From a virus (lineage: Duplodnaviria > Caudoviricetes): a stretch of 44,526 nucleotides of DNA. Shown here piece after piece: positions 18,440 through 36,342 of the stretch. The position numbers were made by a program, and so were the translations under genes. The stretch spans positions 1 through 44,526 of the IMG/VR virus record IMGVR_UViG_3300017747_003050. One strand, given 5' to 3'. A model generated the notes under the pieces. It saw only the letters and a program-made list of their open reading frames with translations, was not told the DNA's origin and made no database searches. How positions within the stretch are numbered: position 1 is the stretch's first letter; the number at the start of each line of letters is the position of its first letter.

Positions 18440-19839
18440 GCACGTTCCGCGCATTCCAGACGGGCCTAGAAGCCGGTCAACAGCAGGCCAAGACACGGCG
18501 TCAGGACGACGCTCGCCGCAAGGCTACCGAAGCCTATGGCATGGGAAACTATGAGGGTGCTGTCACCGGGCTCATGAGCGAAGGGCTGACGGACGAGGCG
18601 AGCAACTTCAACACGCTGGGTCAGCAGGCCAAAACACGCAAACAGCAGGAGGGCTATGCGACAGCCTTGGGAAGCGCACCGGACCAGCGCACGGGCTATC
18701 AGAACCTCCGCCAGCAAGCGACGGCAGCAGGCGACCCTGACACCATCCTGAAAGTGGATGAAGCGCTCAAGGGCATGGACGCAGACCAAGCCGCGAAGTT
18801 TGGCGAGGGCATGGAGTTCCTCGGCAAGACCGCGCTGGGGCTCAAGCAAGTACCTCCCGAAGCACGCGGGAAAGCGGCGATCGAAGCAATCCAAAGCTCG
18901 CCCTATGCGAACCCGCAAATCCTGCAACAGATCCAGCAGGCAGCGGCAGACGGCAAGATCACGGACGAGGAGCTGGACAACTTCGCAATGCAGACGATGA
19001 GCGTTGCGGATCGGTTGAAGGCGCAGCGCGAGGCGGCGCCGAAGCCCGCTGAGCCGTTCACACTGTCGCCGGGCCAGATCAGATATGAAGCGGACGGCAC
19101 GCAGCTTGCTCGCGCACCGGAGACGCCCAAGGCGGCGGGAGCCGGTGCTCCCGGTAGCCTGACAACCAATCAGGCCCTGAACTTCCAGTTCAAGCTGGAT
19201 GATCTGGACCGTGAACTGACCGAGAAAGAAAGGGTCAGAAAGTCCAGCCTCGCTTCGATCAACGAAAACCTCGCGCTTGTTAATCGGTTCACCGACGACA
19301 GCACGCCAGAGGCCAAGGCCAAATTCGAAGCCACCTACGGCAACATGATCAATCCGACCGGCAAGAAGGATGACGCCTTCAACTGGAACGTTGCGCTGGA
19401 TACCAACCGCGCGGACGGAATGGCTATTCTTGATCAGTTGGGCGGCAGCGCCTTCCTCGACTCAATCCAGGCCATGAAGGGAAGCGGCTCGCTGTCCGAT
19501 GCGGAAGGCGCTCGCGTGACGGCTGCGGCAACACGCCTGATGACTGTTACGATGAGCGACACGGAAGCGAGGATTGCTGCGAAAGACTTCAAGGAGAAAC
19601 TTCAGCGGTACAAGACGGCTCTGGAAAACGACATCGCAGACAGCCGCAAAGCGGAAGCAAGGCGACGCCAGCAGCTTGAGGGGATGATGGGCCGTCCAGC
19701 GCCGCCGGAAGCCGCGCCCGCTGCGACAAGGACGCGGGAGGGCGTTCCGTATCTGCTCGCCAAGCCGCAAAACGCATCGCCTGCCCCAATTGAAGAAATG
19801 TCCGACGACGAACTAGAGCGCATTGCGCGGGGCGGGTGA
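18436..19839 (+). CDS. DNA ejection protein (P22 gp20-like position)
   Basis: 467 aa helical protein; FTLSPGQIRY and MKGSGSLSDAEG motifs typical of internal virion proteins. Confidence 0.65.
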   Translation: MSTFRAFQTGLEAGQQQAKTRRQDDARRKATEAYGMGNYEGAVTGLMSEGLTDEASNFNTLGQQAKTRKQQEGYATALGSAPDQRTGYQNLRQQATAAGDPDTILKVDEALKGMDADQAAKFGEGMEFLGKTALGLKQVPPEARGKAAIEAIQSSPYANPQILQQIQQAAADGKITDEELDNFAMQTMSVADRLKAQREAAPKPAEPFTLSPGQIRYEADGTQLARAPETPKAAGAGAPGSLTTNQALNFQFKLDDLDRELTEKERVRKSSLASINENLALVNRFTDDSTPEAKAKFEATYGNMINPTGKKDDAFNWNVALDTNRADGMAILDQLGGSAFLDSIQAMKGSGSLSDAEGARVTAAATRLMTVTMSDTEARIAAKDFKEKLQRYKTALENDIADSRKAEARRRQQLEGMMGRPAPPEAAPAATRTREGVPYLLAKPQNASPAPIEEMSDDELERIARGG

Positions 19840-22800
19840 TGCAACCGACACCGGAAGAGGCACGCGCCGAACTAGAGCGGCGCAAGGCATCTCGTGTAGC
19901 TGCTCCAACCTCGCAGCCTGTGCAGCCTATGGGCATATCGGCAGAGGCAGCAAAGGCTGAGCTTGCGCGCCGCGCGGCAGCAAAGCAGCAAGCAGCGCCA
20001 TCAGACCGCACCGCGCCGCCTATCCAATACGGCATAGATCCGGGCCGCGTGCGGGAGATGTATGACGCCAAGTTCAAGGACGAGTTCAATCCGGATGAAG
20101 TGACGCCTCCGCCTGCGCTTTGGGAAGCGCCGGTAAATGTCGCGAAGGCTCTGGATAGTGAAGACGACAAGCTGGCCCGACGCATCGTTGGTCGGCGTAT
20201 CGACGGCGTTGGTCCCCGCACTCCCGACCCAACGCAAGCGCCAATCTCGGAACAGCAACTCAGCAGTCAAAGCTACTGGAACGCCGAGAAGCCGCCCGAG
20301 CCGATGACGAACACCGTCAAACGCGCTGCCCGTAAAGCAACGAACGTTCTTTCCGAAACCGTGAATATGGGGCTGGAAGCGTTCGACTATGGCCGCGGCG
20401 CTCTTGAACCTGGCCCGCGCATTCCGATGCTGGATGTTCCAGAGGCGCAGGACGCTGGACAGGCGATTTCGGATGTAGGCGGCACAATCCTCGGCTTGGC
20501 TGCGCCGCTCACCGGACCCGCAAAAGCCTTTCAAGCAGGCGGGCAGGCCCTTCGCAGTACAAGTGTGATTGGTCGAACCGCTGCCGCCATCACGCCGCAA
20601 GGCACAAGCAAGCTGGCTCAGGCCACGCGCCTAGGTGGCCGGACTGTTGCGATGGCCCCCGAAGCTGCTGCTACGGCGTTTGGCGCTGGAGCCATCCTTG
20701 GCGGCGAAAACATGGGCGGCGATGGCGACCGCCTGAAATCGGGCGTCGAGTTTGCGTCTGACCCTATCAACTACATCGCCCAGCCTGCCGCCATGTTCCT
20801 CAACCGTGCGGCAATCTTCGTCAAAACAGCAGGCCAGCGCGTTACCCCGGAAGTTGTGCAGGTCCAGCGCGCTGAGGAAGTATTGCGCCGGGCCAACGCA
20901 ACTGCTGCGGAGCAGGCATCGGCAAAGCAGGTAATCGACCAACTCACCCCACCATTGCCAGAGGACGCTCCCAAGCCCTTCTCAGCCCCTCCTGAGCCCA
21001 TTGGGCGCGGTGTCGTGCGGCGCAACCTGGACCGGATCATCGGTGGCGGCGTTGGCGCTACGCTGGGCGGCACTGGCGATGCAATGGCCGCTCCCGGCGA
21101 TGGGGATAGCGGCGGCTTGCCCGGTGGTGCTGCTACCGGCGCGGCGATCGGCATCTTCGGACCTCGTGCGCTGGCAGCGGCGGGAAGCCGTGGGTTCCGT
21201 TCAGCGGCGCGGATGGTGCAGAGCCCGGCTTCTCGTGCTGGCTTTGACGAGCGTGTCGCATCGCGCGCAGTACGCAAGGCGCTCCTCTCAGGCGGCATCA
21301 AGTCCGAGCAGGACGCCCTGAACGCTGCCCGCGCGAAGTTTGGCGACAAGCCCGCATCCGTGGCCGACCTGACGCAAGAGGGTGTCAGCACAACTGCGGG
21401 CATTTCGCGCCTGCCGGGTGCGACTGGAGAGGCAGCGCGTTCTCGCGGCGAGGACCTGATCCAGACCCGTGGTGGCCGGCTGGAGCGCGACATCGGCGGC
21501 GCAACCGGCGCGTCACCTGCGACCATTGCAGGCGACGTTGACCGCATGGTGGAGCTTGCTCGTGAGCAGGCGACCCCGGCTTACAACTCGCTGAAGGTGC
21601 AATTCCCGACCGGAAGCCTCGCCAGCCCGCGCTTGACGCAGTTGGGCAAGATTAAAGCGCTCGCGCCGCATACCAAGGCGGTGGACGGTTATCGCAAGAC
21701 GGTACAGGCAACCGAAGGCCGGGCCGTTGGAGACTTCGAATATTGGGATCTGGTCAAGCGTGACATTGACGCCAAGGAGCAACAGCTCCTCGCCTCTGGC
21801 GCTACGCTGGATGACATCCGCGTGCGCAAGCTGGAAGACACCCGCAGCGCACTGGTGGAAGAACTCGACAAACTGATGCCGGACTATCCCGCCGCTCGCC
21901 AGTTAGGCGGTGAAGCGCCGAAGATGAATGCGGCGTTCAAACAGGGTCAGGGCCTGCTCGGCGGGCGCTACACGGCAGAGGATGTGTCCCGCGTTGCCGA
22001 GAGCGTTACGGGCCAGCCCCTGACCGCGCTGCAAGCGGGCGTCATCCGCTCTATGGTTGGCAAGACCGAAGGCGCGGGCGGCGCTGTTGCGTCTCTGACT
22101 AGCGCAGGGGCGCGCAAGAAGCTGGAGCGCGTGTTCGGCAAGGGTCCAGCCGACGAGATGCAGGCTCGCTTCGCAGCGGATGCATCGATCGTGCAGAACG
22201 CCTCGCGCATGAACCCGAACGTTGGTTCCGTCACGTCTCAAGCCGAGATGGGCGCGGGCGGTATCCTTCCCACGGCTGCGGATCTGATCCGCATGGGTAC
22301 GAACCCCATGCAGACAGCCCTGGCGGCCATGTCCAAATCCGGCAGCTACACCAAAGCCCAACGCGACCTCATGGGCCAGATGCTGCTGGAAGGCGTGACG
22401 CCTGAGAACGTCGCCCGCATCTTCGCCGGCAAGAAGCCCAAGGGCGGCGCTCCTGCAACACCGGCAGCGGGTCCGACAACCGGGCTAGGCGGAACAGCTT
22501 CATCCTCAGTGGCGGGCGGTGTGGCTGGCGGGGTTCTGGCAACCGGGCTCGGCGGCGTTGCCAACGCGCAGGAGGCAGAAGGAAACAACGAGTTTCTGGC
22601 CCCTCTGGCTCAAGAGCGCGATCGGATCAAAAAGCTAGAAGCCGAGCTGAACATCATCGAGAACGGGACCGTTGAAGAGAAGCAGGCATATCTTGCCGAG
22701 ACGCGCGGCTTGAAAGTCAGCGCGGACGGAACGCCGGACGGCAAGCTTGGACCCGATACGCGCGCCGCGATTGCAAAGGCTCGGACGGATCTGGAAGCGG

Positions 22801-23642
22801 CTATCAACGCTGGACGCGACCGCGAAAAAACCATCTCCGGTAAGGCGGAAAGCCGTCGCGCAGAGATTGAGATGAAAGGCGCTTTTGATCGCACGAAGCC
22901 AGACGGCATGATAGAACTCGCGCGCGAGCTGGGACCGTGGGTCGGTATCGGAGTGGGGGTTCTCGCTGGGGCGCTGATGCGTAAAGGCGCGGTCAAGAAA
23001 AACTCAGCAGAATCGGCCATGAAAGCCGCATCGCTCAACAGGCTTGTCTCAGACGCGACGCCAACAACGTCCGACATAATGACCGGACGCAAGGCGATGG
23101 GCAAACGCGCAACCAACCTCAACGAGTTCTTTTATCAGGGCGGTGCTGGCAAGGCGGATAACCTGAAACAGCGCGTTGGCATGGAACCCAAGAAGGGCGT
23201 TCCCTTCATGACGGACGACAACGGCGACTGGATGGCTAGGCCCAACGCGAAGGAAGCGTTTGATCTGTTCAAGCCTGGAACCAAGCACTTCAAGATGATG
23301 GACATGGCCGTCATCGGAGCGTCGATGGCCGAATCCGAGTTCGCCGGAAATCTTGCCAAGGGCTTTCACGAAGAAGCGAAGCAAGCTCAGGCGGCAGTGG
23401 ACAAGGCGCAGGAAGAAGGCAACGCGGCCAACCTCGAAATTGCTATGGCGCGGCTTGAGAGCGCAAAGAATGCCGAGGCTGCGGCCATTGCGTTCCAGCG
23501 GTTCGGTCAGGTGGCAGCGCTTGCCCGAACGGCTGGAGCGTTCAAAATGCCCTACGAGTACACGCGGCCCAACGTCAAAAAGGCGCAGGCCGATCAGGCG
23601 CTAATCCTCGACGCTATCCGGCGCAGCGCTAACATCCCGTGA
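19836..23642 (+). CDS. Large DNA ejection/internal virion protein (P22 gp16-like position) with putative peptidoglycan-binding motif
   Basis: 1268 aa, Ala/Gly-rich, several Gly-zipper hydrophobic stretches; DGKLGPDTRAAI PG-binding-like motif. Confidence 0.7.
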   Translation: MMQPTPEEARAELERRKASRVAAPTSQPVQPMGISAEAAKAELARRAAAKQQAAPSDRTAPPIQYGIDPGRVREMYDAKFKDEFNPDEVTPPPALWEAPVNVAKALDSEDDKLARRIVGRRIDGVGPRTPDPTQAPISEQQLSSQSYWNAEKPPEPMTNTVKRAARKATNVLSETVNMGLEAFDYGRGALEPGPRIPMLDVPEAQDAGQAISDVGGTILGLAAPLTGPAKAFQAGGQALRSTSVIGRTAAAITPQGTSKLAQATRLGGRTVAMAPEAAATAFGAGAILGGENMGGDGDRLKSGVEFASDPINYIAQPAAMFLNRAAIFVKTAGQRVTPEVVQVQRAEEVLRRANATAAEQASAKQVIDQLTPPLPEDAPKPFSAPPEPIGRGVVRRNLDRIIGGGVGATLGGTGDAMAAPGDGDSGGLPGGAATGAAIGIFGPRALAAAGSRGFRSAARMVQSPASRAGFDERVASRAVRKALLSGGIKSEQDALNAARAKFGDKPASVADLTQEGVSTTAGISRLPGATGEAARSRGEDLIQTRGGRLERDIGGATGASPATIAGDVDRMVELAREQATPAYNSLKVQFPTGSLASPRLTQLGKIKALAPHTKAVDGYRKTVQATEGRAVGDFEYWDLVKRDIDAKEQQLLASGATLDDIRVRKLEDTRSALVEELDKLMPDYPAARQLGGEAPKMNAAFKQGQGLLGGRYTAEDVSRVAESVTGQPLTALQAGVIRSMVGKTEGAGGAVASLTSAGARKKLERVFGKGPADEMQARFAADASIVQNASRMNPNVGSVTSQAEMGAGGILPTAADLIRMGTNPMQTALAAMSKSGSYTKAQRDLMGQMLLEGVTPENVARIFAGKKPKGGAPATPAAGPTTGLGGTASSSVAGGVAGGVLATGLGGVANAQEAEGNNEFLAPLAQERDRIKKLEAELNIIENGTVEEKQAYLAETRGLKVSADGTPDGKLGPDTRAAIAKARTDLEAAINAGRDREKTISGKAESRRAEIEMKGAFDRTKPDGMIELARELGPWVGIGVGVLAGALMRKGAVKKNSAESAMKAASLNRLVSDATPTTSDIMTGRKAMGKRATNLNEFFYQGGAGKADNLKQRVGMEPKKGVPFMTDDNGDWMARPNAKEAFDLFKPGTKHFKMMDMAVIGASMAESEFAGNLAKGFHEEAKQAQAAVDKAQEEGNAANLEIAMARLESAKNAEAAAIAFQRFGQVAALARTAGAFKMPYEYTRPNVKKAQADQALILDAIRRSANIP

Positions 23643-23780
23643 GAACAGCATCATGGCGCCGCCTGAGACGATCAGGACGATGCTCATCCACAGCGGCATG
23701 ATCCAGGTCTGAAACGACGCGGGAAAGAACCCGTAGACGCCGAACGCCACGAACAGCAGGCCCGCAATCCAGAGCTTCAT
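23601..23780 (-). CDS. Antisense small two-TM protein (59 aa, MKLWIAGLLFVAFGVYGFFPASFQTWIMPLWMSIVLIVSGGAMMLFSRDVSAAPDSVED)
   Basis: Hand-translated, below the ORF-track cutoff; RBS GAGG before the ATG; two hydrophobic helices. Confidence 0.65.
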   Translation of the reverse strand: MKLWIAGLLFVAFGVYGFFPASFQTWIMPLWMSIVLIVSGGAMMLFSRDVSAAPDSVED

Positions 23781-23847
23781 CTATCGCCTCGCAAATCACT
23801 CCGAGGCGGACGTTAACACGTCCTAACAATTACTAACAGCAGCCCGC

Positions 23848-23985
23848 CTAAAGCCGCGAGCGCCGCCGTCTTTCGTCTTCTGCGACTAGCAGGACGATTC
23901 CGACTGCGGTGAAAAGGAACGGCCAGCCGCCCAAGCCTGTCCACAGGCCCCAGAGCACCAGACCCAGTCCGACCAATCCGAGCAT
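23848..23985 (-). CDS. Antisense small two-TM protein (45 aa, MLGLVGLGLVLWGLWTGLGGWPFLFTAVGIVLLVAEDERRRRSRL)
   Basis: Hand-translated; RBS GAAGGGG 5 nt before the ATG; hydrophobic hairpin with basic tail. Confidence 0.65.
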   Translation of the reverse strand: MLGLVGLGLVLWGLWTGLGGWPFLFTAVGIVLLVAEDERRRRSRL

Positions 23986-24016
23986 AACAACCCCTTCAGC
24001 AAATCAGGGGCCGAAC

Positions 24017-25438
24017 ATACCCTACATTCCAGTCGTTCCACAGGCCGACCGCCGCCAGCGGTACGGCATGGCGCCCCTGCGCCTGCTCAACATGTTCGCC
24101 GTCCCTATTCCAGCGGAGACAGGCAAGCCTGTTCGGGCGGCGCTTGTGCCAACGCCGGGCCGTGTCCAGCGTGTTGACCTCGGCGCAGAGATACAGGGCA
24201 TCTACTGCGAGGCAGGCGTCAGAAGCGGTGCGCTGTTCGTGGTCGCAGGCGGGACGCTCTACAGCATCTCGTCATCGTGGGTCGCGACATCCATTGGCGC
24301 AATCGGCGGCAGCGGAAACGCGGTCTTTGCCGGCCTGCGTGACAATCTCTACGTCGCACGCGCGGGCAAGCCGTGGCGCTGGAATGGAACATCACTGACG
24401 CAGGTTGCGGACGTGGATGCGCCAGACGCCACCAGCCTGCTTGTCCTGTCTCAGCGCCTCGTCGCATCGGAAGCCGGGGCGGATACCTACTACTGGTCAG
24501 CCGTTCTGGATGGGACGGCATGGGAAGCGCTGGGCTTTGCCACGGCGGAACAGCGGCCCGATGAAATCCGGCGCATGATCCGCCTGTCAGGCCAGATCCT
24601 CGCCCTTGGCGCTGGCAGCATCGAGATCATCCGCGCGACGACATCCACAACGCTCCCGTTCGCCAACATCACGGGCCAGTCGATTGACGAGACGGACGGC
24701 ATACTGAGCCCCGAAGCCTACGCGATCCGCGGTGACAAGCTGTTCCTCATTGGCGGCGACCTCGCGCCCTACGTGATGAACGGGTTCAGCATCAGCCCGC
24801 TCCCGCGCAATGGCGAGATGGAGGATGACCTCATCGCCCTGAGCGCTGCCGACCGGCTGCTTGTGACGTGCCTGGCGTACAAGTACGGCAGCAACGAGTT
24901 CTTCAAGGTCCGCATTCCGAACAAGGCGGCGTTTGTCCTCAATACAACCACAGGCTTCTGGCATCGCGAACAGAATTGGGAGGAGGACACCTACCTCCCG
25001 CAATTCCACGCCAACGCCTACGGCTACAACGTGCTGGCCGATGAGGGCGGGTCTGTCCTCTACACGCTGGACAATACCGTATTCACCGATGCCGGGAACA
25101 CGGTGGAGCGCATCGCCACGCTACGCCCATCCTTCGCGGACTATGAGACAATCGGATCGCTCTGCGTAGACCTGCAAGCGTTCGGGCGTCCCGTTAGCGG
25201 GCAGGGCTCCAACCCTACCATCATGGTGGAAGTCTCGACGGACGGTCGCACGATCCGAGACGACACCCGCTCCGAAATCACGCTGACCCTCGGCGCAGAC
25301 GGACGCTACCAGAAGCCCGTGATGTGGGGCCTTGGCATGGTGTCGCCGGGCGAGGCGACGAACATCTCGATCCGCATGACCGATCCCGCAGGCGTCACAA
25401 TCTATGGCGCGTGGATCAATGAGGGGCAGCGCTCGTGA
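24017..25438 (+). CDS. Packaged-DNA stabilisation / tail hub protein (P22 gp10-like); probable ATA start
   Basis: LRLLNMFA...LVPTPG...FATAEQRPD...TGFWHRE...VSTDG...WGLGM gp10-family motifs; the family-like N-terminus begins at PYIPVV just after RBS AGGGG (ORF track starts at GTG 23909). Confidence 0.8.
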   Translation: MPYIPVVPQADRRQRYGMAPLRLLNMFAVPIPAETGKPVRAALVPTPGRVQRVDLGAEIQGIYCEAGVRSGALFVVAGGTLYSISSSWVATSIGAIGGSGNAVFAGLRDNLYVARAGKPWRWNGTSLTQVADVDAPDATSLLVLSQRLVASEAGADTYYWSAVLDGTAWEALGFATAEQRPDEIRRMIRLSGQILALGAGSIEIIRATTSTTLPFANITGQSIDETDGILSPEAYAIRGDKLFLIGGDLAPYVMNGFSISPLPRNGEMEDDLIALSAADRLLVTCLAYKYGSNEFFKVRIPNKAAFVLNTTTGFWHREQNWEEDTYLPQFHANAYGYNVLADEGGSVLYTLDNTVFTDAGNTVERIATLRPSFADYETIGSLCVDLQAFGRPVSGQGSNPTIMVEVSTDGRTIRDDTRSEITLTLGADGRYQKPVMWGLGMVSPGEATNISIRMTDPAGVTIYGAWINEGQRS

Positions 25439-26148
25439 CGGAAAACGTTCCGTTCCTGCAAGTCGGGCTCAAGATTACCAACGATGACGGGACTCCGGTA
25501 GAGTGGTTCCGCAACGCCTGGAATGCGCTCCTTCTGCGCACAGGGACCGAGACGGATAACAGCGTCGGCGGCATCATCAGCGGGGCGGCGGAACTGCAAG
25601 CGCAGATCGCCGCCGAGGCTGCAGCGCGCATAGCGGGGGATACGGCTGTTGCAGCGGCAGCGGCTGGAAGCTCTGGCGGCACAAGCAACGCCAACGTGTT
25701 CTCCAACGGCGTCAGCAGCGGCGCAACATGGGTCAGCATCTGCACAGTGACGCTGACGCCATCTGGCGCTGGCGGGGACTACTCCATCACGGTCAACACG
25801 GACCTGTATATCAGCGGCGGCCTGAGCGATGACGGGGGCGCGGCTGTCAGCTTCTCAGGCAACTGGCGCATCATCGAGGAACTGACGGGCGGGGGTACTG
25901 AGTACACGCTCGATAGCGGGACGTTTACGGTCGATTACTCGCCCGCAGAAATCTACTCCGAAGGCGGCATCCCGTACACGGTCGGCCCGTTCTGGACCGC
26001 GACATTTGCGGGCTTCGCCGCAGGTCTGATCCCCGCAAACAACAGCGCGCAATCCGACATCCGCTTCGAGATCCAGCGCGCGAGCGGGACGAACGAAATT
26101 ACGAGCCCCGGTCTTTCCGGTTCAATGACTGTAGTCTGGACGGCATAA
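25435..26148 (+). CDS. Tail needle-like protein (gp26-like position): coiled coil plus C-terminal knob
   Basis: Follows the gp10-like gene; LQAQIAAEAAARIAGDTAV coiled coil then a beta-rich domain. Confidence 0.6.
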   Translation: MTENVPFLQVGLKITNDDGTPVEWFRNAWNALLLRTGTETDNSVGGIISGAAELQAQIAAEAAARIAGDTAVAAAAAGSSGGTSNANVFSNGVSSGATWVSICTVTLTPSGAGGDYSITVNTDLYISGGLSDDGGAAVSFSGNWRIIEELTGGGTEYTLDSGTFTVDYSPAEIYSEGGIPYTVGPFWTATFAGFAAGLIPANNSAQSDIRFEIQRASGTNEITSPGLSGSMTVVWTA

Positions 26149-26151
26149 ATC

Positions 26152-28809
26152 ATGGCAAAAAACGTATTCGGGCTCGTCCACACGATGCTGGACGACAGCG
26201 GAGCTTTGGAACCGGGCGGTTCCATTGAGGTATATGATGCGGGGACCACGACCGCGCGAACCGTCTACTCCGACAGGGCGCTGACGACCACGGCAGGCTA
26301 TCAGATCACCGCAGATGCAGCCGGGCGACTTCCTGAGCGCTGGATTGCTGACGCAACGCTGGTGAAGCTGGTCTACAAGGACAGCGCGGGCGCCACGCTG
26401 GCAACGCGGGACTATGCCAACGACAACGCGGACGGCCTTGAAAACAGCATCCAGCAATTCGAGGAAACCGCAACAGGCACAGGCGCGTCTCAGATCATCA
26501 CGATTGAAGACGTGCTTCTGTCATCTGTCTATCAGGTTCTCGTTTCGGTTGACGGCGCAGTTCAGCCGGTCACGACCTACACGGTCACGACCGACGAGAC
26601 GGATTCATTCGTCACCCTGACGGCCCCGCTTGCCTCTGCGATCTATGTCCGCAGCAACGCTGTTCAGGGCATCGCCTCGACGGCGGGGGACGACGTTGTC
26701 ACCTCCACCGGCTCCACCACGGCGCGGACGCTTGCGGCGCGTTTTGCAGAAGTCGCGAACGTGCTGGACTTCGGGGCTGTGGGGAATGGCGTCACCAATG
26801 ACAGCACGGCGGTTCAGGCTGCGGCGACATCGCTGACGAACGGCGGCACGCTCTACTTCCCTCCCGGCAAGACGTACAAGCTGAACACAATGATCACCAT
26901 CACGGCAAGCAATGTCCGTGTGATGTGTGAAGGCGCGACCATCGACGCTTCGGACCTCACGTTTGACTCAGGTGTCCGCGCGTCTGGCAGCGTGTTCAGC
27001 TTCGCCGGCACGGTCATTCTGAACACGACGCTTGCGGCGACGGTTTCTCAGTACGCCCGCACGGCGCAGCTAACCAGCGTCACAGGCATCCAGGCTGGCG
27101 ACCTCATCCGGTTCACGTCCGACAAGATACTGTATCGCAATACGTCTGACGTTGCCTATTATACCGACTTCAACCGCGTCACTGGCATTTCAGGCTCAAC
27201 CGTCACGCTGGAAGTTCCCGCCCATCTGGAGCTTACGACGTCAGGCGCGGCTGTGGCTGTGCGTGTCTACAGGCCGATCAGCAAATTGAGCGTGCGTGGC
27301 GGATCGCTCATCGGCGGCGGCGTCACGGGGAACCTCACCAACGGCATGGGCCAGTGCGGTCTTTACTTCACGGCCTGCGCGGATGTGGAAGTGGAAGGCA
27401 CGAATTTCGACGGCTTTCAGGGCATCAACATCTACACTGATGGCTGCATGGATGTGTCCGTGGACAACCTCGACATCGAGGGCATTGCAGAAAGCGAGAC
27501 GATTGTAGAGGGCCAGAACTCGGGCTTCTATGGCGTCTACTTTGCCCGCACTCGCAGGGGTACGGCAACCCGCGTCAAGGGTACGCGCGTCCGGCACGTC
27601 ATCGACGCTATCGACTCATACGAGATCACGCAGGAGACATGCAGGGCGGCTCGCACGCATCGCGGGGCGTTCGGCTCGCACGAGGGCGTCTATGACCTGA
27701 TCGTCAGCAATTGCCGGGCGGTGGATTGCTACTCGGGCGGGGTCAATCGCGCCTTTACGTCGATCTGGGAAAACAACGATTTCGACGCGCTGACGACTGC
27801 CGCAATCACCACGGCGACCATGCTGGCGGCTGATGCGGCTGGCAGGCTCATTGTGCGCGGCGGCAAGCTGCGTGCGCGTTCCGGCTCTAGCGGCGTCGGC
27901 ATCAACTCCACGGGCGTCTACAGCCCCTTGATCGTGGAGGGCGTGGACATCACCGCCGTTGGGACGGGCATGATCCTGCAAACGGCGAAGATTGCGAACC
28001 TGATCTTCCGTGACAACACGGTCGATGCGCCAACCGGCCTTGCCACGTCCTACCCGACCGGATCGGAGAACCTCGATTACTTCATCGGCGCTGTGATTGA
28101 TGACAACACGTTCCTGAACTACACGGTCAACGCCGTCACGTTGCGCGGTTCGGAACTGATCACGGCCCCTGCTGATCGTATCTACATCCGGGGGAATGTG
28201 GGCATCCCGGTCAACGCAGGTTCTGGCAATGGCTATATTCTTCGTGCTGAAGGCTGGTATGGCGATGACATCGAGGTCAGCGACAACACGCAGCTTGGCG
28301 ACGCGTCGGCGGTTGTGTCGATCTGCCCGTCTGCGCCGTGGCTCATCAGGTCCGCGCCTACCGTTGAGCGCAACACGAACTCACCCAAGACCAACAACAC
28401 GCACCGCATCATTGGGGAAAACACCTCCGCCAGCTATGTGAGCGGCGCAACGGTTCTGGCTGGTCAAATCCTCCAACGCACGCGCCCCGGCACGGCGACC
28501 ATCTTCGGCTACATCGTCACCACGGCGGGGACCGAGGGTACGCTTTCAGGCGTCACGACCTCGGTTGATATCGGCGTCTCGACCACGACCGCGAACCTTA
28601 CCGGCAACACCGTCAGCAAGGTCTACCCCGGCTGCTATATCACGATTACTGGCGCGGGCGTGGCGAGCGCCAATCTCTCAACGCGCGTGACGGCGGTAGC
28701 GGCTGACTACAACAGTTGCACCATCGAGACAGCGGCATCCACCACGGTGAGCGGCGCAACGACCGCCTACCGCGCGCCTGTCTTCACCGCCTTCGCCACG
28801 ACGTCCTGA
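26152..28809 (+). CDS. Tailspike / receptor-binding protein with right-handed beta-helix (pectate-lyase-like)
   Basis: N-terminal particle-binding region (GGSIEVYDAGTTT...TADAAGR), STTARTLAARFAE linker, NVLDFGAVGNGVTNDSTAVQAA...LYFPPGKTY cap motif, beta-helix repeats. Confidence 0.85.
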   Translation: MAKNVFGLVHTMLDDSGALEPGGSIEVYDAGTTTARTVYSDRALTTTAGYQITADAAGRLPERWIADATLVKLVYKDSAGATLATRDYANDNADGLENSIQQFEETATGTGASQIITIEDVLLSSVYQVLVSVDGAVQPVTTYTVTTDETDSFVTLTAPLASAIYVRSNAVQGIASTAGDDVVTSTGSTTARTLAARFAEVANVLDFGAVGNGVTNDSTAVQAAATSLTNGGTLYFPPGKTYKLNTMITITASNVRVMCEGATIDASDLTFDSGVRASGSVFSFAGTVILNTTLAATVSQYARTAQLTSVTGIQAGDLIRFTSDKILYRNTSDVAYYTDFNRVTGISGSTVTLEVPAHLELTTSGAAVAVRVYRPISKLSVRGGSLIGGGVTGNLTNGMGQCGLYFTACADVEVEGTNFDGFQGINIYTDGCMDVSVDNLDIEGIAESETIVEGQNSGFYGVYFARTRRGTATRVKGTRVRHVIDAIDSYEITQETCRAARTHRGAFGSHEGVYDLIVSNCRAVDCYSGGVNRAFTSIWENNDFDALTTAAITTATMLAADAAGRLIVRGGKLRARSGSSGVGINSTGVYSPLIVEGVDITAVGTGMILQTAKIANLIFRDNTVDAPTGLATSYPTGSENLDYFIGAVIDDNTFLNYTVNAVTLRGSELITAPADRIYIRGNVGIPVNAGSGNGYILRAEGWYGDDIEVSDNTQLGDASAVVSICPSAPWLIRSAPTVERNTNSPKTNNTHRIIGENTSASYVSGATVLAGQILQRTRPGTATIFGYIVTTAGTEGTLSGVTTSVDIGVSTTTANLTGNTVSKVYPGCYITITGAGVASANLSTRVTAVAADYNSCTIETAASTTVSGATTAYRAPVFTAFATTS

Positions 28810-28855
28810 TCCCTCTCCCCACCATTCGCCCCAACCCTAACGGGAACGAGAACGC

Positions 28856-29986
28856 ATGTCTGTTTATCCGAACATTGCACGAACCGTCGCCGGGCTTGGC
28901 GATGGCCTCTCAACGCTTCTGCAAGAGGACGTTGAGCAGAAGGGCAACCCGCTGTTGTTCGCGGTGGGCATGTCTTCGTCTGCCGTCCCGCTTGCCAACG
29001 CTCCCATGCGGATCAGTGCGCAATGGACGTTCGACGCGCCGCCAGTGTTTCGCGACCGGCTGCACACGCAAGCGGCGCTCGGGTTCGGCATCGGCGGCGA
29101 TATCGAGGGCGGCAACTACTTTCAGGACATTCAGGTTTTCGAGGCGGGCATTCAGGTTTTCTCGGACCTGAACTTCCAGAGCGATGACGCCGGCGCACTT
29201 GGCCCTGTCGCGCGGCTCTATCACAACAGCGCCACGCCCGCAGCGAACGACATCATCGGCGTCCTCAACTTTCAGGGTGAGGACAGCGCTGGCAACACAA
29301 CCTCATTTGCTGACATCAGGGCCATCATCGAAGACGCAACCAACGGCTCGGAAGACGGAAACCTGACCATCTTTGCGACAGTCGCCGGGACGGCTGCGGC
29401 ACAGCTCCAGATCGGAAACGGCGTCTACGGACCCGGCGCAACGGGCGGATACAAGGGCCTCGGCACGGCCAACTTCACGGCGGTCTATGACGATAACGTC
29501 CTGCTGTCCTGCTACGTGTTCGACGCTGCCATGGATGGCGCTGTCAGAATGGCGAAGTGGGATACCAAAGTCCCTGATCGCGTCCACCCTGCGCGCTATC
29601 TGGTCGAGGATATCGACGAGGATGACCCCGATACCGGCGAGACGACCCGCAAGGCCGTTCGACGCAAGGTAGAGGACGAGCGCATCGAGGCGCGCTTCCA
29701 CGATCCGGCGCGCAAGTTCGCGGCGCGTCTCGGCGGCAAATACGACCCGCTCGATATCGAGGGCTACTCCCGCCACTGGCAGGAGAAGCGCCACCTCACA
29801 TCCATGCCCAACGAGGACAAGTTCAACCCGGTGGCTGGAATGGCGACTGGCGCGTGGGTCCAACGTCTCATTGAAACAGTCGAAATCCAGGCGGTCCACA
29901 TATGGAAATTGCACGAGCGTTTAAAGCAATTGGAGCGGCAGTCCTCTTCCTCTGCGGATGCGGCGGATCGGGCGGGGGAGAAGTAG
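28856..29986 (+). CDS. Second fibre/spike protein with C-terminal intramolecular-chaperone-like domain
   Basis: Beta-rich N-terminal half; CYVFD...KRHLTSMP...RLIETVEIQAVHIWKLHERLKQLE resembles chaperone (S74-like) C-termini ending in a coiled coil. Confidence 0.6.
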   Translation: MSVYPNIARTVAGLGDGLSTLLQEDVEQKGNPLLFAVGMSSSAVPLANAPMRISAQWTFDAPPVFRDRLHTQAALGFGIGGDIEGGNYFQDIQVFEAGIQVFSDLNFQSDDAGALGPVARLYHNSATPAANDIIGVLNFQGEDSAGNTTSFADIRAIIEDATNGSEDGNLTIFATVAGTAAAQLQIGNGVYGPGATGGYKGLGTANFTAVYDDNVLLSCYVFDAAMDGAVRMAKWDTKVPDRVHPARYLVEDIDEDDPDTGETTRKAVRRKVEDERIEARFHDPARKFAARLGGKYDPLDIEGYSRHWQEKRHLTSMPNEDKFNPVAGMATGAWVQRLIETVEIQAVHIWKLHERLKQLERQSSSSADAADRAGEK

Positions 29987-30714
29987 ACATGGCTTACGAT
30001 TCAGGCCGCGCAACTATGGTCGTGGATATGTCCACGGGCAAGGACATGATCACCAACACGTCGCTGTCCCGGATGCCCACGACCGAGGGCGTGCAGATCG
30101 AGCTGATGACCTGGACGACGACTGCTGACGGCGAGCCCGTCGCGACGACAGCAGACAGCGGCGACAGTGTCGGGGCCAGCTATTCGGGCCTCGATCTCGG
30201 CGCCCATATCGGCTTGGCAGCAGGAACGGCCCTGAAGCCTCGCCGCATGTCGATGACGTTCTCGCTGACATCGGGAAGCGCAAACTCCGGTTCTGCTGTG
30301 ATGATCTCCAACCCGAACGGGCTGGGCGATATTGATGACATCACTGGAACGGCGGGCGCATCGACCGGAACGGGCTCGGGGCTTACCCGCGTCGGCAAGG
30401 GCTCGCTGCATATCGTGGCGACTGAGACAAAGGTCGATATCGGGATTTATACCGACAACAGCTTGTCAGCCACCACGGTCAACTACCTCAACGGCGATCT
30501 GACAAAGGACGGGGCGACGAAGTATTCCCTCACCGCTGAAATCCACGAGGACCGCATCATCGTCTGGCTTCCAGACGGGCAGGTGTGGACGAACGTTTCC
30601 GCCAACTACTACACCGCTGCTGGGCGTTACATTCAATTCGAGAGCTACACCGGATCGGCCAGCGCTACGCGGGCGAGCTTCTATGCGTTCGGCGCCGAAG
30701 CGGAGGTTCTGTGA
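29902..30714 (+). CDS. Putative lipoprotein or beta-sandwich protein (alternative start ATG 29989)
   Basis: The 29902 start gives MEIARAFKAIGAAVLFLCG-C-GGSGGG (signal peptide II-like); the 29989 start has RBS GGGGAG. Confidence 0.65.
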   Translation: MEIARAFKAIGAAVLFLCGCGGSGGGEVDMAYDSGRATMVVDMSTGKDMITNTSLSRMPTTEGVQIELMTWTTTADGEPVATTADSGDSVGASYSGLDLGAHIGLAAGTALKPRRMSMTFSLTSGSANSGSAVMISNPNGLGDIDDITGTAGASTGTGSGLTRVGKGSLHIVATETKVDIGIYTDNSLSATTVNYLNGDLTKDGATKYSLTAEIHEDRIIVWLPDGQVWTNVSANYYTAAGRYIQFESYTGSASATRASFYAFGAEAEVL

Positions 30715-31328
30715 TGACGCGCACACCGAAGCAGCAATTCGACAACTATGCGGAGCATATGGCGCGGATGCTTGGCGCGTCTGCGCCTCCCCCTCGCAAC
30801 AGGCCGAGACGACCGGGCATCTGGGCCAGCGGCGGCATGGCTGATGCACCCATCCAGACTTTCGAGACGGCTGACCCCATTCCAGATCCCCGCGATGAAG
30901 AACTAGCAGCCCTCCGCGCCCGTGTCGCAGAACTGGAAGCCAGAGACAGATCGGTGTTTCAGGAAGCCCCGCTGCTTCCCGCCCCTGATGCGCTCATGAG
31001 CGATTGGGGAGAGGTGGGGGCGTATCCTGGCATTCCGGACGACTTCGTCCAGCTCATGACGGGTGAAGAAACGCTGGAGCAGGCCGTTGAGCGCATGACG
31101 CTGGGCGTCGATGAGCTTCTGGATATGGCAACCGTGCTTTCCGATCAGTCGCTTGAACTGGCGCTCTGCACAGTCCCGCCCGAGCGGGTGAACGAATGGA
31201 CCGAGAAGCTGATCACCGAGAAGGCAAGGCTGCGCCGTCTGCGCGGAACGGTGGATGAGAACTTCGGGCGCGAGAACCTCGTCAGTCGTGTGCAGGGCAT
31301 GTTTGCGCAGGTGGGAGCCAAGCGATGA
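30714..31328 (+). CDS. Hypothetical protein
   Basis: Likely true start ATG 30714 (TGATG coupling, RBS GGAGG); 204 aa with a short coiled coil. Confidence 0.7.
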   Translation: MTRTPKQQFDNYAEHMARMLGASAPPPRNRPRRPGIWASGGMADAPIQTFETADPIPDPRDEELAALRARVAELEARDRSVFQEAPLLPAPDALMSDWGEVGAYPGIPDDFVQLMTGEETLEQAVERMTLGVDELLDMATVLSDQSLELALCTVPPERVNEWTEKLITEKARLRRLRGTVDENFGRENLVSRVQGMFAQVGAKR

Positions 31329-31349
31329 TTTCGAAAGGGGCTGGGCAAA

Positions 31350-31778
31350 ATGGAACTTCTGCTGAAGGAGCAGCTTGAGCTGCAAAAACGCTCCTCCGAG
31401 CGATCCGATTGGGAAAAAATCGCAGCGTTGCAAGAGGCCGTTTCAGTCCTGAAGTCACGCTTTGAAGGCGCGCTGGACAGCATTCGCGAAAAGCTTGGCG
31501 ATGCTGTGAGTGATGAAGACATCAAGGAGATTCGACGCGAGTGGGAGACGGCTATGCGTGATGCACTATCAGGGGTCCGTGAGCACTTCGCCACGGCCAA
31601 TGAGAACCAGTCCAATGCGCTTCTGGCGCAAGTTGAACTGATGCTCGCGCGCGATCGGGAGATGGCGGCGAACGAAGCAAAGAAGACGCGCCAACAGGTG
31701 CTGTTTCTGATCCTTGGAGCGGTGCTTTCCATCTTCGGGGCGCTGTTTGTCTTCTGGGAAACCACCGCGCGCATGTAG
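31350..31778 (+). CDS. Coiled-coil protein with C-terminal TM helix (possible holin/antiholin)
   Basis: 142 aa; helical soluble part then VLFLILGAVLSIFGALFVFW. Confidence 0.75.
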   Translation: MELLLKEQLELQKRSSERSDWEKIAALQEAVSVLKSRFEGALDSIREKLGDAVSDEDIKEIRREWETAMRDALSGVREHFATANENQSNALLAQVELMLARDREMAANEAKKTRQQVLFLILGAVLSIFGALFVFWETTARM

Positions 31779-31798
31779 CGCGAACGAGAGGGCTGGGC

Positions 31799-33007
31799 AT
31801 GGGCAAGTTCTTAGACAATTTCCTTGCATTCAAAAACGAGGCCGACGCGACCCGCAAGTTTGCGCTGTTCGCGGTGGTCATCATCACGGTTGGCCTTGCC
31901 TCGCTGTCTGTCACGGGCATCGTCGCAACCGCCAAGTGGACGTGGCTGTCAGCGCTTCCGACGTTCGGCCTAATCCTAGCCGTTCTCGGTGCAGAGCGTC
32001 TGGCGACCGTCGCGTTCATCCGTATGCTCACCGCATCAACGATGTGGCGCAAGATTGCGGGCGCATTCATCTTCATTGGCCTTGCCGCTGTCGGCGTCCA
32101 CAATGCGGAGAACGGCGCGAAGGTTGTCTGGCCGGAGCGGTTCGCGGAAAGCTCTGCCTCGCTTCAGGCAAAGGCGGCGCTTGCAGGCGAGGAAGCCGGG
32201 ACACTCGGCACGGCGCAGCAGGCAGCTATCTCAGGAACCGGCGCAGAGCTTGAGCGCGTCCGCGTCCAGATCGCGGAACTGAAGACCGAGCAGCAGATCA
32301 TGGCGAGCATGTCGCCGGAGGGTATCTCCAAGGCTCAAAGCCTCTTGCTCGCTCAGGGCCTATACTTCGGCAGCGTGGACGGCATCCGGCAAGACAAGAC
32401 GGAAAGCGCCATGCGTGCGCGCGGCGAGGCGATCCAGGCTGAGCTTGCCACCCTCAAGGCGCGTGAGGACGGGCTCATGGCGGGGCAGGCGAGCCCCGTC
32501 CAGCAGGCCACCACGGATCGCAGGCTGTCCGAGATCGAACTAGCCGACAAGGCAAACGCCGCGTTCTGGGCGTGGCTCTGGCTCATCATCATGCTTTGCG
32601 TTCTTGAGGGCGCCCGTTCTCTCAGCCTGTGGGCGCTCATCACCGACATCAATTCCAAGGACGCACAACGCGACCGCGACTGGACCGACGAACTGGCGGC
32701 GCTTCGACATCAGCAGGAACGTGCGCGGATCATCGCAGAAACCAACGCTGCGGTTGCCGCCTATTCGGCCCCGCCTGTCGCGGTTGAGCCTGTCGCGGCT
32801 ATTGAGCCTCCCCCGGAGCCGGAACCCGCACCAGAGCCAATCCCTGAGCCGCTGACGCTGGTTGATCCCGCGCCCGCCAACCAGGCGCTCCGCAAGGGCG
32901 GCAAGAACTCCTCCATGAAGAAGGCCGCAGCCAAAGCGGCGCGTAACCGCGTGCTCATCCTCGCTGACCGCAGCAATGCCCAAGCCATGAAGGTTGCCGC
33001 AGAATGA
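31799..33007 (+). CDS. Multi-TM membrane protein with extracytoplasmic coiled coil and peptidoglycan-binding-like domain
   Basis: Three N-terminal TM segments, KAQSLLLAQGLYFGSVDGIRQDKTESAM (PG_binding_1-like), a fourth TM, then a Pro/Glu-rich and basic tail. Confidence 0.75.
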   Translation: MGKFLDNFLAFKNEADATRKFALFAVVIITVGLASLSVTGIVATAKWTWLSALPTFGLILAVLGAERLATVAFIRMLTASTMWRKIAGAFIFIGLAAVGVHNAENGAKVVWPERFAESSASLQAKAALAGEEAGTLGTAQQAAISGTGAELERVRVQIAELKTEQQIMASMSPEGISKAQSLLLAQGLYFGSVDGIRQDKTESAMRARGEAIQAELATLKAREDGLMAGQASPVQQATTDRRLSEIELADKANAAFWAWLWLIIMLCVLEGARSLSLWALITDINSKDAQRDRDWTDELAALRHQQERARIIAETNAAVAAYSAPPVAVEPVAAIEPPPEPEPAPEPIPEPLTLVDPAPANQALRKGGKNSSMKKAAAKAARNRVLILADRSNAQAMKVAAE

Positions 33008-34539: not shown

Positions 34540-35813
34540 ACGACCATCTGACCGTAGGCGAATGGTTCTATCGCGAGATAGACGAGTTCGAAAACGCGCC
34601 TGCGGACTGTCGCCAGACAGCGGACGGTTGCGCTCTGGAAGCCTATCTCTGCCCGAGCAATCAGTGGACCATCGGTGATGGCTGCTGCTTCTGGGAGGAT
34701 GGGCGCCCGGTCCAGCAAGGCGAGACGCTGCCCGATGACGAACACCTGCCTGAGCGCCGGCGCAAGCTGCTGGGCTTCAATGCCAAGTATTGCGAGGAGT
34801 ATGTCCGCAGGCACGTCACGGTCCCGCTGACGCAGAACCAGTTTGATGTGCTGTGCAGTTTCCGGTTCAACACCCGTGAGACAACGCTCAGTGGATCGTC
34901 GCGGCTGCTGCCTGCGATCAACGCTCAGAAGTGGCAGGATGCCGCTGTCGCAATGACCGAGTTCGTCTATGGCTCTGGTTCAAAGCGCGGCCCGGTCAAG
35001 CTTCCGCCGAAGGGCTGGGACGTTGAAAAGAGCGGCGGGCAGTGGTGGGCAATCCCGCCTGATCACCTGACTGGCGCTGAGCGCATTGAGCTTGGCGCGG
35101 AGGAGAAGTGGTATCCCTACCAGGATGCACACAGGGGCCTGCTGAGACGGCGTCTCTGGGGCGGGCTCGTGTTCCTCGATTACGACCCCCGCGACGTGAC
35201 GAAAGACAACGACGTTGCCTTGCCGACAAAGGCCAAGTTGCTTTCCACGGGCGTCTGGCGCGATTCCATCAGCACGGAAGGGCTCACGACGCTGGCGCAT
35301 GTTCGGATGCGCGCCAAGCCCTTGCCCACTGAGCTTGTCCTCTCAACCCCCATCAAAGCTGAGCCCCCGACCTCTGTGATTGAGGCGGCAGGCAAGGCGG
35401 GCCAGCCGGTGCCGCTGCCCGGCCCAGCACCGGCTGCGCCTGCCTCCAAGACTTCCGCGAGTGGTTCCTCGGAAGCTACGCCGGTCGCGCTACCTGTCCC
35501 GGCTCCCCAGCCGACACCAGCGCGACCGGCGCCTGCTTCTGTGCCGGCGAAGGTGGAGGCTAAGCCTGTCGCGCTGCCTCTCCCGAAGGATGCCGCACCC
35601 GCCAGCATCGAGCCAAAGGACATGGTGATGTCCAAACGCTTCTGGGGCCTGACGGTTACGGCGCTTGGCACAACGAACCTGCTGCCTCAGGCCGCGCAAA
35701 CGTGGGTCACGAACGAGGGCAACCGCGAGCTGATCACATGGCTGATCGTCGTGGCGATCGGGTTCGCGCTCTACAAGTACGGGCAGCACAAAGCGAAGAA
35801 GCCGCTGAAATGA
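34536..35813 (+). CDS. Endolysin (GH24/T4-lysozyme-like) with Pro/Ala linker and C-terminal two-TM domain
   Basis: GCALEAYLCPSNQWTIGDG, VPLTQNQFDVLCSFRFN, RGLLRRR; C-terminal SKRFWGLTVTALG...LITWLIVVAIGFALY. Confidence 0.85.
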   Translation: MNDHLTVGEWFYREIDEFENAPADCRQTADGCALEAYLCPSNQWTIGDGCCFWEDGRPVQQGETLPDDEHLPERRRKLLGFNAKYCEEYVRRHVTVPLTQNQFDVLCSFRFNTRETTLSGSSRLLPAINAQKWQDAAVAMTEFVYGSGSKRGPVKLPPKGWDVEKSGGQWWAIPPDHLTGAERIELGAEEKWYPYQDAHRGLLRRRLWGGLVFLDYDPRDVTKDNDVALPTKAKLLSTGVWRDSISTEGLTTLAHVRMRAKPLPTELVLSTPIKAEPPTSVIEAAGKAGQPVPLPGPAPAAPASKTSASGSSEATPVALPVPAPQPTPARPAPASVPAKVEAKPVALPLPKDAAPASIEPKDMVMSKRFWGLTVTALGTTNLLPQAAQTWVTNEGNRELITWLIVVAIGFALYKYGQHKAKKPLK

Positions 35814-36293: not shown

Positions 36294-36342
36294 CCCGCTC
36301 AACCCGCTGCCCATTCTGCGCAGCTTTTAGGAGGACGTGCAT

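Follow-up and report, generated by a model that had tools for sequence, protein, structure and literature searches.

A Half-PG_binding_1 Hairpin in an Ejection-Type Protein and an Hsp70-Linked Membrane Protein of a Tailed Phage

Introduction

The peptidoglycan-binding domains of the lytic transglycosylase SltB3 and of a spore cortex-lytic enzyme, both of the PG_binding_1 family (PF01471), carry the pattern Q-x-x-L...G...DG-x-x-G-x-x-T over positions ~3–36 of the family model. The whole PG_binding_1 domain is composed of three helices. The same pattern is found in two proteins encoded in the window, the 44,526-nucleotide phage sequence analyzed here (IMG/VR record IMGVR_UViG_3300017747_003050): the large ejection-type protein P0001 and the membrane protein P0002, termed MEM. 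In contrast to the PG_binding_1 enzymes and their domains, the window proteins contain only the first half of the pattern-bearing domain, the second helix extends as a long coiled coil, no hydrolase is attached, and MEM is without the second glycine of DG-x-x-G-x-x-T (position 198 is Q in 57/120 and R in 50/120 sequences).

P0001 resembles the podophage ejection and polyvalent proteins, as described in PMC5512222 and PMC12002296, in its late-gene position and its large modular build, and relatives of P0001 carry PF18760. Unlike the gp28 hydrolase of phage A4, the wall-related part of P0001 is a binding half-motif. The gene product that follows MEM, P0003, has the ATPase motifs, the hydrophobic linker, and the β substrate domain of DnaK/Hsp70 (PF00012); unlike DnaK, it has no lid and is paired with a membrane protein. 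Similar to the TAC systems HigBAC and CmdTAC, as described in 10.1101/2024.02.24.581848, a dedicated chaperone stands beside a partner with a putative C-terminal chaperone-binding element. The set of SecB-like chaperone, toxin, and antitoxin that defines TAC systems was not found: the chaperone of MEM is an Hsp70, no toxin–antitoxin pair is present, and the genes lie inside a lysis operon. The HXS defence and T4 Imm/Sp exclusion (PMC13128918) likewise place a periplasm-facing element of PG-binding type near the entry route, as MEM is predicted to do, but no rSAM enzymes or HxS repeats were seen here, and MEM is a four-TM late-gene protein. Among the papers listed by full-text searches, whose coverage excludes most subscription literature, none appeared to concern a lysis cassette with a phage Hsp70 or the half-motif hairpin.

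Results

Architecture of the two proteins

P0001 (1268 residues; 19836..23642, plus strand, as are all features below) is by position the third, large ejection-type protein and comprises a variable N-terminal part and a swappable C-terminal unit of ~370 residues, which in the relatives compared is attached to large proteins that are unrelated elsewhere. An ejection role is suggested by this position because the preceding genes match PHROG 598 (DNA ejection) and PHROG 2534 (released on infection). Polyvalent proteins are recognized by several disparate effector domains; relatives of P0001 carry PF18760 (ART-PolyVal) or a weak GNAT match, and Pfam recognized no effector domain in P0001 itself. 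A Gly-rich uncharged segment with an A-x-A-Q-like end (22506..22571), a candidate membrane-inserting helix, lies directly before the hairpin; an uncharged run of at least 14 residues occurs here in 38/40 distinct modules and a loose A/G-x-A/G/P-Q motif in 34/40. The module itself (residues ~918–999; 22587..22832), delimited by hhalign, is predicted to fold as a helix, a turn, a short helix, a DG loop, and a long helix, and the AlphaFold model of the unit has helices at 13–47, 50–61, and 77–124 (model numbering; pLDDT 68–89). The half-motif (residues 949–979; 22680..22772) aligns to Pfam positions 4–36 of 57 with 15.8 bits; D968 and G969 are conserved in 25/25 sequences, G972 in 20/25, and T975 in 23/25. 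The hairpin is followed by a moderately hydrophobic Gly-rich helix (residues 1035–1053; 22938..22994; hydropathy 1.31, family mean 0.9). Relatives of the unit were not found in annotated phages, where a single match has an E of 6.

MEM (402 residues; 31799..33007) has, judged by hydropathy, charge, and model helices, three N-terminal TMs, a predicted periplasmic hairpin (residues 101–253), TM4 (residues 254–272; 32558..32614; hydropathy 1.91), a Pro-rich linker, and a basic cytoplasmic tail. An inner-membrane location facing the periplasm is predicted from the four TMs and the 153-residue outer loop. The last 45 residues (32870..33004), which form the predicted Hsp70 docking site, combine a basic stretch with a short hydrophobic core (32945–32962). 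The MEM copy of the module (residues ~143–224; about 32225..32479) is matched by a profile built from ejection proteins only with 34.1 bits (E 8.7e-10). Its half-motif (residues 176–205; 32324..32413) aligns to Pfam positions 3–36 of 57 with 13.2 bits, and Q180, L183, G187, Y189, D194, and T201 are present in 120/120 sequences. The predicted model has helices at 119–169, 173–185, and 198–228, the same pattern as in the model of the ejection unit; the pTM of the models is low (0.30 and 0.44).

In both proteins, the motif breaks off at the same point, spanning only positions ~3–36 of the 57-position model, and sits atop a hairpin that is predicted to be helical and is flanked by hydrophobic segments. 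Both scores are below the PF01471 gathering cut-off of 23 bits, which is exceeded by one relative of the ejection protein (P0124, 25.9 bits); 7/26 MEM rows give weak matches, the best with E 0.014. The whole 57-position domain was not found in either protein, and the models show one long helix instead. The top sequence match among solved structures is an SltB3-type PG-binding domain for the ejection profile (E 1e-5) and the PG-binding domain of a spore cortex-lytic enzyme for the MEM profile, the latter at only E 0.63.

Searches with MEM returned 260 relatives at E ≤ 0.001; no relative was found in GTDB genomes or annotated phages. The ESM Atlas gave only unnamed clusters. No holin family of Pfam, PHROG, or NCBIfam matched MEM or any other scanned window protein; profiles often miss holins. 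DUF4407 (PF14362), a family whose TM and coiled-coil layout resembles that of MEM, did not match MEM; its score for the coiled coil of the ejection protein, 11 bits, is below the cut-off, as are its matches in all 14 control genomes. Foldseek found nothing at E ≤ 0.001 for either model in the viral library or for the ejection unit in the PDB; the best viral matches of MEM were uncharacterized proteins over the whole length (E 2e-3, TM 0.42), and VIA searches gave generic helical matches only. One stretch of chain 9k2v_E of the cyanophage A4 pre-ejectosome was matched by both the MEM hairpin (Z 8.8, rmsd 6.3, 93 aligned) and the ejection unit (Z 7.9, rmsd 4.7, 87 aligned), values that helical bundles can reach by chance, and the A4 paper's section on it names no PG-binding domain at this stretch, so the match was not taken as evidence.

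Relation between the two modules

The initial annotation had aligned the two segments by eye, and they sit where it placed them (ejection residue 926 at 22611, MEM residue 153 at 32255). Full-length BLASTP between the two proteins gave a best E of 0.32, off register, and the top-scoring local alignment between the segments was off register too; when the two segments, picked by hand, were forced into a global alignment, p was 0.006 relative to simple shuffling and 0.03 relative to shuffling within 7-residue windows. The common module that had been claimed is borne out by family profiles together with flank register. The proposed profile–profile alignment, carried out with hhalign, gave P 6e-6 over 74 columns and 3e-6 over 79, and the ejection-only profile, run against 7633 ORFs, scored MEM relatives at up to 35 bits and the best unrelated ORF at 10. 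By profile comparison, therefore, the module is confirmed as real, with an extent of ~80 residues in each protein. The match had also been drawn onward into the last helix and TM, and this part is not supported: the right flanks align with P 0.12, the ejection helix at 1035–1053 is not alignable to TM4 of MEM, and at the sequence level the similarity ends upstream of the downstream TM.

Masking the motif had been suggested as a check. With the motif masked the score falls from 32.5 to 4.8 bits. When the alignment is fixed by the motif, the left flank reaches 20 bits, a value attained by 0/588,975 control windows, or by 95 of them with a coiled-coil-composition background. Displacing this flank by heptads lowers it to 0 and −18 bits. 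When the flanks were shuffled (500 times), the profile score averaged 12 bits with a maximum of 20.6, and heptad-preserving permutation (500) reached at most 23.7. The right flank is weaker (23/609,919 control windows, 8,849 with the composition background), and in a register-free search neither flank alone singles out MEM among other coiled coils. The total profile score cannot separate MEM (median 29 bits) from canonical PG-binding domains because the latter reach 23–28 bits on the ejection profile; flank register can. At the sequence level, the match of the helix that precedes the motif exceeds what coiled-coil composition explains.

Origin and distribution

Common ancestry is the part of the earlier proposal of an internal duplication that stands; duplication within this genome is supported neither by the DNA, in which the best match between the two modules is 12 nt, nor by the window's own ejection module, which scores 3.2 bits to MEM compared with 24.4 for the best of 44 ejection modules and is among the least MEM-like. 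In a tree that is unrooted and poorly resolved, MEM forms a single long-branched clade. The sequences thus indicate an old paralogy rather than a copy made in this genome.

The end of the ejection gene is covered in 26 distinct MEM phages; 12 of these carry the ejection module and 14 lack it. A record that is 92% complete holds the MEM copy only; of the five records checked for both modules, three were uninformative, even MEM being missed at first look. In four phages that carry the ejection module, the MEM slot is occupied by another protein. The MEM module is 83% conserved, whereas ejection units are 26–36% identical between clades.

Lysis operon and lidless Hsp70

The usual upstream neighbor at most MEM loci is a small coiled-coil protein with a C-terminal TM (31350..31778) that matches no family. 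Downstream are the lidless Hsp70 P0003 (511 residues; 33004..34539), an endolysin with C-terminal hydrophobic segments (34536..35813; Phage_lysozyme E 5e-18), a spanin pair (35810..36293), and an 81-residue two-TM holin candidate without family match (36337..36582), which is also encoded in the MEM-less phage L089. The outer spanin (36015–36293) matches PHROG 1275 (Rz-like), and the inner one (35810–36118) is assigned by its TM and overlap. The genes overlap in series from MEM through Hsp70 to the endolysin and spanins, and Hsp70 comes next after MEM in 47/49 distinct loci with at least 300 nt downstream, by a 4-nt overlap in 31. MEM is thus a member of a lysis operon, whose late timing is suggested by gene order. 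Promoter and terminator counts are at chance level, with no promoter excess, and in a single RNA run the share was 0.06, in scattered contigs from related strains. The phage has an integrase and is temperate; PADLOC matched neither MEM nor its neighbors, except for a weak 42-residue match in Hsp70.

P0003 scores 255 bits with PF00012 (cut-off 20.6), its β substrate domain is not followed by a helical lid, and D8, K77, E179, D203, and T208 of the catalytic site are present in 34/34 sequences. It scores 244 bits with the DnaK equivalog, for which 648 is the threshold, aligns to DnaK residues 5–485 of 605, and is ~30% identical to DnaK genes in phage records. The arginine of the KRIINEP stretch of DnaK, the J-domain contact R167, is E175 in P0003 (E in 24/34), and no J-domain was found within the window.

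Divergence of the MEM tail follows that of Hsp70 (rho 0.83), and that of the hairpin does not (rho about 0). Tail type agrees with Hsp70 class in 44/44 pairs, and across 41 loci 182 pairs are similar in both, 482 different in both, and 0 of 664 discordant, a count of non-independent pairs that omits 156/820 intermediate ones; the first 60 residues of the adjacent endolysin give 147 discordant pairs. The matching comprises only five Hsp70 classes, and the tail and the start of Hsp70 are adjacent DNA. The tail pattern fits the DnaK substrate motif of PMC2717214. These sequence comparisons show the tail, not the hairpin, to be the part that tracks the lidless Hsp70, and MEM may dock Hsp70 through it, likely for lysis control.

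Discussion

The reading we favor is that a wall anchor has been reused and that MEM docks Hsp70, likely for lysis control. In its full form, to which we give nearly an even chance, one ancestral hairpin, likely a spacer and clamp to the wall, came to be used, likely separately, at entry and at lysis. The modules are related by profile and flank register, and the position of each hairpin between two hydrophobic segments predicts that it faces the periplasm in both proteins. The tip would bind peptidoglycan; being half a domain, it may do so only when oligomerized. Once DNA has been injected, the ejection hairpin would steady the channel, and such a channel could hold on to the wall with no hydrolase involved, a mechanism that can be tested. 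In MEM, within the late lysis operon, it is the tail that is inherited with the matching Hsp70 type; the lidless Hsp70 may bind this tail and, depending on ATP or on clients that compete for it, hold or release MEM, with the tuning of lysis as the most likely outcome. That both proteins are tethered to the wall alike, as had been proposed, is supported as a prediction by their common predicted topology and secondary structure, and the hairpin likely ties each of them to the wall. MEM may, however, have lost this binding, given the sub-cut-off motif scores and the missing second glycine.

A related module whose MEM tip no longer binds the wall, the hairpin serving for oligomerization or as a spacer arm, is a minority possibility that carries some weight. 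It is favored by the loss of the glycine, by the 5–15 bits that the motif alone scores, and by the tip-less slot proteins, which do with an acidic loop; the six motif residues invariant in 120/120 sequences speak against it, although the whole region is highly conserved. Insertion of a generic half-motif twice into unrelated coiled coils, with no common module, we regard as improbable. The scores of canonical PG-binding domains on the ejection profile, the unspecific flanks in free search, the weak right flank once composition is corrected, and the poorly resolved tree would all suit it, but the left flank in exact motif register, the collapse on heptad shifts, the same truncation point in both copies, and the occurrence of both families in one phage lineage argue against it.

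The initial annotation had proposed that MEM mimics the entry apparatus in superinfection exclusion, which would link Hsp70 to genome entry. That the MEM hairpin joins or jams the ejection proteins of related phages, blocking entry or signaling superinfection to the lysis machinery via Hsp70, seems rather improbable. The true relatedness of the modules and matching flanks, the predicted periplasmic position, and the periplasmic PG-binding effector of HXS that blocks DNA entry (PMC13128918) are compatible with it, and a conserved trap could act broadly. The evidence nevertheless weakly opposes exclusion: the modules are uncoupled across phages, the partner being missing in 14/26, diversification of the ejection modules is not mirrored by the MEM module, and the window's own module is among the least MEM-like, so a decoy is unlikely, and since the two genes occur independently MEM is probably no decoy of the injection machine. 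Exclusion and the link of Hsp70 to entry are also weakly opposed by the covariation of Hsp70 with the tail only and by the embedding of MEM in overlapping lysis genes without promoter excess. A domesticated entry piece whose hairpin co-assembles in the periplasm with ejection proteins of superinfecting phages and signals through the allele-matched Hsp70 on its tail, to delay lysis or block entry, is unlikely; if true, it would parallel T4 lysis inhibition, with a chaperone as the gate. Equally doubtful is a chaperone-gated abortive-infection pair made in the lysogen, in which foreign phage proteins displace the tail from Hsp70 and MEM damages the membrane. The phage is temperate, and the matched, diversifying tail–chaperone classes resemble the ChAD–chaperone pairs of TAC systems (10.1101/2024.02.24.581848); against this, MEM and Hsp70 are fixed inside the late lysis operon, MEM has no PADLOC match, and the chaperone is an Hsp70, not SecB-like.

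What emerges is a half-PG_binding_1 hairpin, as yet unnamed, that serves a single phage lineage both in an ejection-type protein and in a lysis-operon membrane protein, and the Hsp70 question shifts from entry to the MEM tail. MEM need not be the holin because a separate candidate is encoded at 36337. In phages without Hsp70, slot proteins have the same four-TM spacing and an acidic loop at the hairpin, without the PG-like tip or the hydrophobic tail core; comparisons with MEM (hhalign P 0.34) and with the ejection module revealed no homology, so their equivalence to MEM rests on position and topology. Because they fill the same place, the PG-like tip would not be essential to the job of the slot. 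The five matched tail–Hsp70 classes and these natural Hsp70-less phages allow direct swap experiments.

Architecture of the shared module

The third ejection-type protein of the window, P0001, and the lysis-operon membrane protein MEM (P0002) share a module of ~80 residues (residues ~918-999 and ~143-224, respectively), predicted to form a helical hairpin with half of a PG_binding_1 (PF01471) motif at its tip. In both copies, the motif match covers positions ~3-36 of 57 and lies under the cut-off. AlphaFold predicts the same succession of elements in both proteins, a long helix, a short turn, a 12-13-residue helix, a loop, and another long helix, in models with pTM values of 0.30 and 0.44 and local pLDDT mostly of 70-89. 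The ejection units, the swappable ~370-residue C-terminal parts of P0001 and its relatives, keep D and G in 25/25 sequences, T in 23/25, and a second G in 20/25; the MEM family keeps Q, L, G, Y, D, and T in 120/120 but has Q or R in place of the second G. The MEM hairpin lies between TM3 and TM4 and is periplasmic by topology prediction. In the ejection unit, an uncharged run rich in Gly precedes the hairpin (38 of 40 modules) and another Gly-rich helix follows it. In P0001, this run (22506-22571) ends in an A-x-A-Q-like motif resembling an internal signal-peptidase site, which, speculatively, could release N-terminal effector domains post-injection. Fold searches with both hairpin models returned nothing specific; both match residues ~420-540 of a cyanophage A4 pre-ejectosome chain (PDB 9k2v_E), at Z scores of 8-9 that fall in the generic range.

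Relationship between the two modules

As single sequences, P0001 and MEM are aligned by BLASTP off register (E 0.32), and forced global alignment of hand-picked segments gives p 0.006-0.03. With family alignments of 25 ejection C-terminal units and the 120 MEM proteins listed among 260 matches, hhalign pairs ejection residues 921-998 with MEM residues 148-224 at P 6e-6, and at P 3e-6 when repeated with independent alignments. A profile of ejection units only matches MEM in the window at 34 bits (E 8.7e-10); across 7633 ORFs, MEM relatives reach at most 35 bits and the best unrelated ORF 10 bits. The resemblance noticed by eye in the initial annotation is thereby confirmed, and its supposed continuation into the last helix and TM is not, hhalign finding no match there beyond the module (P 0.12).

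Weighing against a shared module, PG-binding domains of the canonical kind reach 23-28 bits with the ejection profile, versus a median of 29 for MEM. The native MEM of the window scores 32.5 bits, falling to 4.8 with the motif masked, to 12 +/- 2.5 (maximum 20.6, 500 shuffles) with the flanks shuffled, and to at most 23.7 after heptad permutation (500 permutations); neither motif nor flanks are thus enough alone. In the register fixed by the motif, the left flank scores 20 bits, a value reached by 0/588,975 control windows, or by 95 under a coiled-coil-composition background, and moving it by heptads lowers the score to 0 and -18 bits. The right flank in its motif-fixed register is equalled by 23/609,919 control windows and by 8,849 under the coiled-coil-composition background. 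A smaller control set gives the same picture. Counting against shared flanks, a single-flank search with the register left free favours other coiled coils. The left flank is similar beyond coiled-coil composition; the right flank is weaker. Common ancestry of the ejection and MEM modules is very probable.

Origin and distribution

Internal duplication, the origin first proposed, is not borne out. The DNA of the two modules shows no similarity within the window, and the window's own ejection module scores 3.2 bits on the MEM profile versus 24.4 for the best of 44 ejection modules. In a poorly resolved tree of 99 columns, MEM forms a single long-branched clade. The ejection C-terminal unit is a mobile part, joined to unrelated N-terminal regions, some with PF18760; polyvalent proteins, as outlined in PMC5512222, are likewise modular.

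The same annotation had suggested that MEM could act as a decoy of the DNA-entry apparatus, which would link Hsp70 to entry. Such a role is possible because HXS, outlined in PMC13128918, shows that entry can be blocked by a PG-anchored periplasmic protein. A decoy would be expected to track its target, although a broad trap need not, and the ejection module and MEM are uncoupled in distribution. Of the distinct MEM phages in which the end of the large ejection-type gene can be seen, 12 carry the module and 14 lack it (large ORFs were called ejection genes by position; L018 was added, L048 merged with L049, and L025 and L026, copies of the window, left out, as were L059 and L083, where tail genes alone are visible; 35 further loci have no large ejection-type gene in view). 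One record, 92% complete, contains just the MEM copy, and loci L089, L091, L092, and L093 have the module and no MEM. Mean identity is 83% in the MEM module versus 26-36% for ejection units between clades. The decoy and the link of Hsp70 to entry are thus not supported. In L062, L085, L078, L027, L040, L044, and L056, the MEM-Hsp70 cassette accompanies a large ejection-type gene and tail genes of quite another type, indicating that it moves between virion modules.

Hsp70 and the MEM tail

Hsp70 (P0003) follows MEM in 47/49 distinct loci with at least 300 nt downstream; of the two exceptions, one is a contig that ends in an HNH insertion and the other has a MEM that is truncated. Its ATPase residues are intact in 34/34 and the lid is absent. 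In 24/34, a Glu occupies the position equivalent to the DnaK arginine that contacts the J-domain, and the window contains no J-domain. The 44 MEM-Hsp70 pairs comprise five Hsp70 classes (17, 17, 8, 1, and 1), each with its own type of MEM tail, the last 45, cytoplasmic residues. The tail correlates with Hsp70 at 0.83, the hairpin at about 0. In a linkage control of 41 loci, 0/664 classed tail-Hsp70 pairs are discordant (156 intermediate pairs being unclassed), versus 147 for the start of the endolysin, which borders Hsp70 just as closely. Each tail carries a short hydrophobic core behind basic residues, the pattern of DnaK preference outlined in PMC2717214. HNH-type genes lie between MEM and Hsp70 at L019:1296-2018, L054:2296-2931, and in L057 (the L054 gene being the one scanned with Pfam); L019 and L057 retain the tail-Hsp70 class match despite the insertion.

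The shared module is best read as a membrane-to-wall anchor put to second use. During entry, the anchor would hold the ejected channel steady. The MEM copy would fasten a late membrane protein to the wall, and a private Hsp70 would grip the tail of that protein. Most likely, MEM-Hsp70 would tune lysis. Because another gene, at 36337, is a holin candidate, MEM may act as a regulator instead of a hole-former. The chaperone-gated logic is similar to that outlined for TAC systems (10.1101/2024.02.24.581848), though MEM-Hsp70 is not itself a TAC. Judged from literature listings, nothing was found describing the half-motif module or a MEM-Hsp70 lysis cassette.

Slot proteins and genome setting

In related phages, other proteins (P0167-P0169) occupy the slot of MEM ahead of the endolysin with the same four-TM spacing. 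This family (three TMs, hairpin, TM; L089:11885-12895, L092:15682-16713, L093:10372-11466, and L101-L114) carries an acidic D-G-x-x-N-D-D loop at the hairpin tip, and its tails, by inspection, are without the hydrophobic core. No Pfam or PHROG family matches it, and homology to MEM is not detectable. Hsp70 is absent from the slot-protein loci in a search with a positive control, and it was recovered in 0/5 whole records, one of them 100% complete, in a search without its own positive control.

The 44,526-base record, an estimated 84% complete, encodes terminase, portal, capsid, three ejection-type genes, a tail spike, lysis genes, and an integrase. An ejection function for P0001 (19836-23642) is inferred from its position behind PHROG 598 and 2534 genes. 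MEM (31799-33007) overlaps Hsp70, which overlaps the endolysin, with spanins next. Behind a Pro-rich linker, the C-terminal end of the endolysin (35630-35813) carries a pair of hydrophobic segments plus a basic tail, suggesting that it may be membrane-anchored or holin-fused. A GroES-like co-chaperonin (Cpn10; 11391-11786, E 1.5e-8) is, beside Hsp70, the second chaperone gene of this 44-kb phage. The portal-like gene (5068-7695, 875 aa) weakly matches tail-fibre in its C-terminal part. A 10-nt word is repeated at 31338-31347 and 31789-31798, directly 5' of the starts of a 142-aa gene and MEM, possibly as a ribosome-binding or recombination site common to both.
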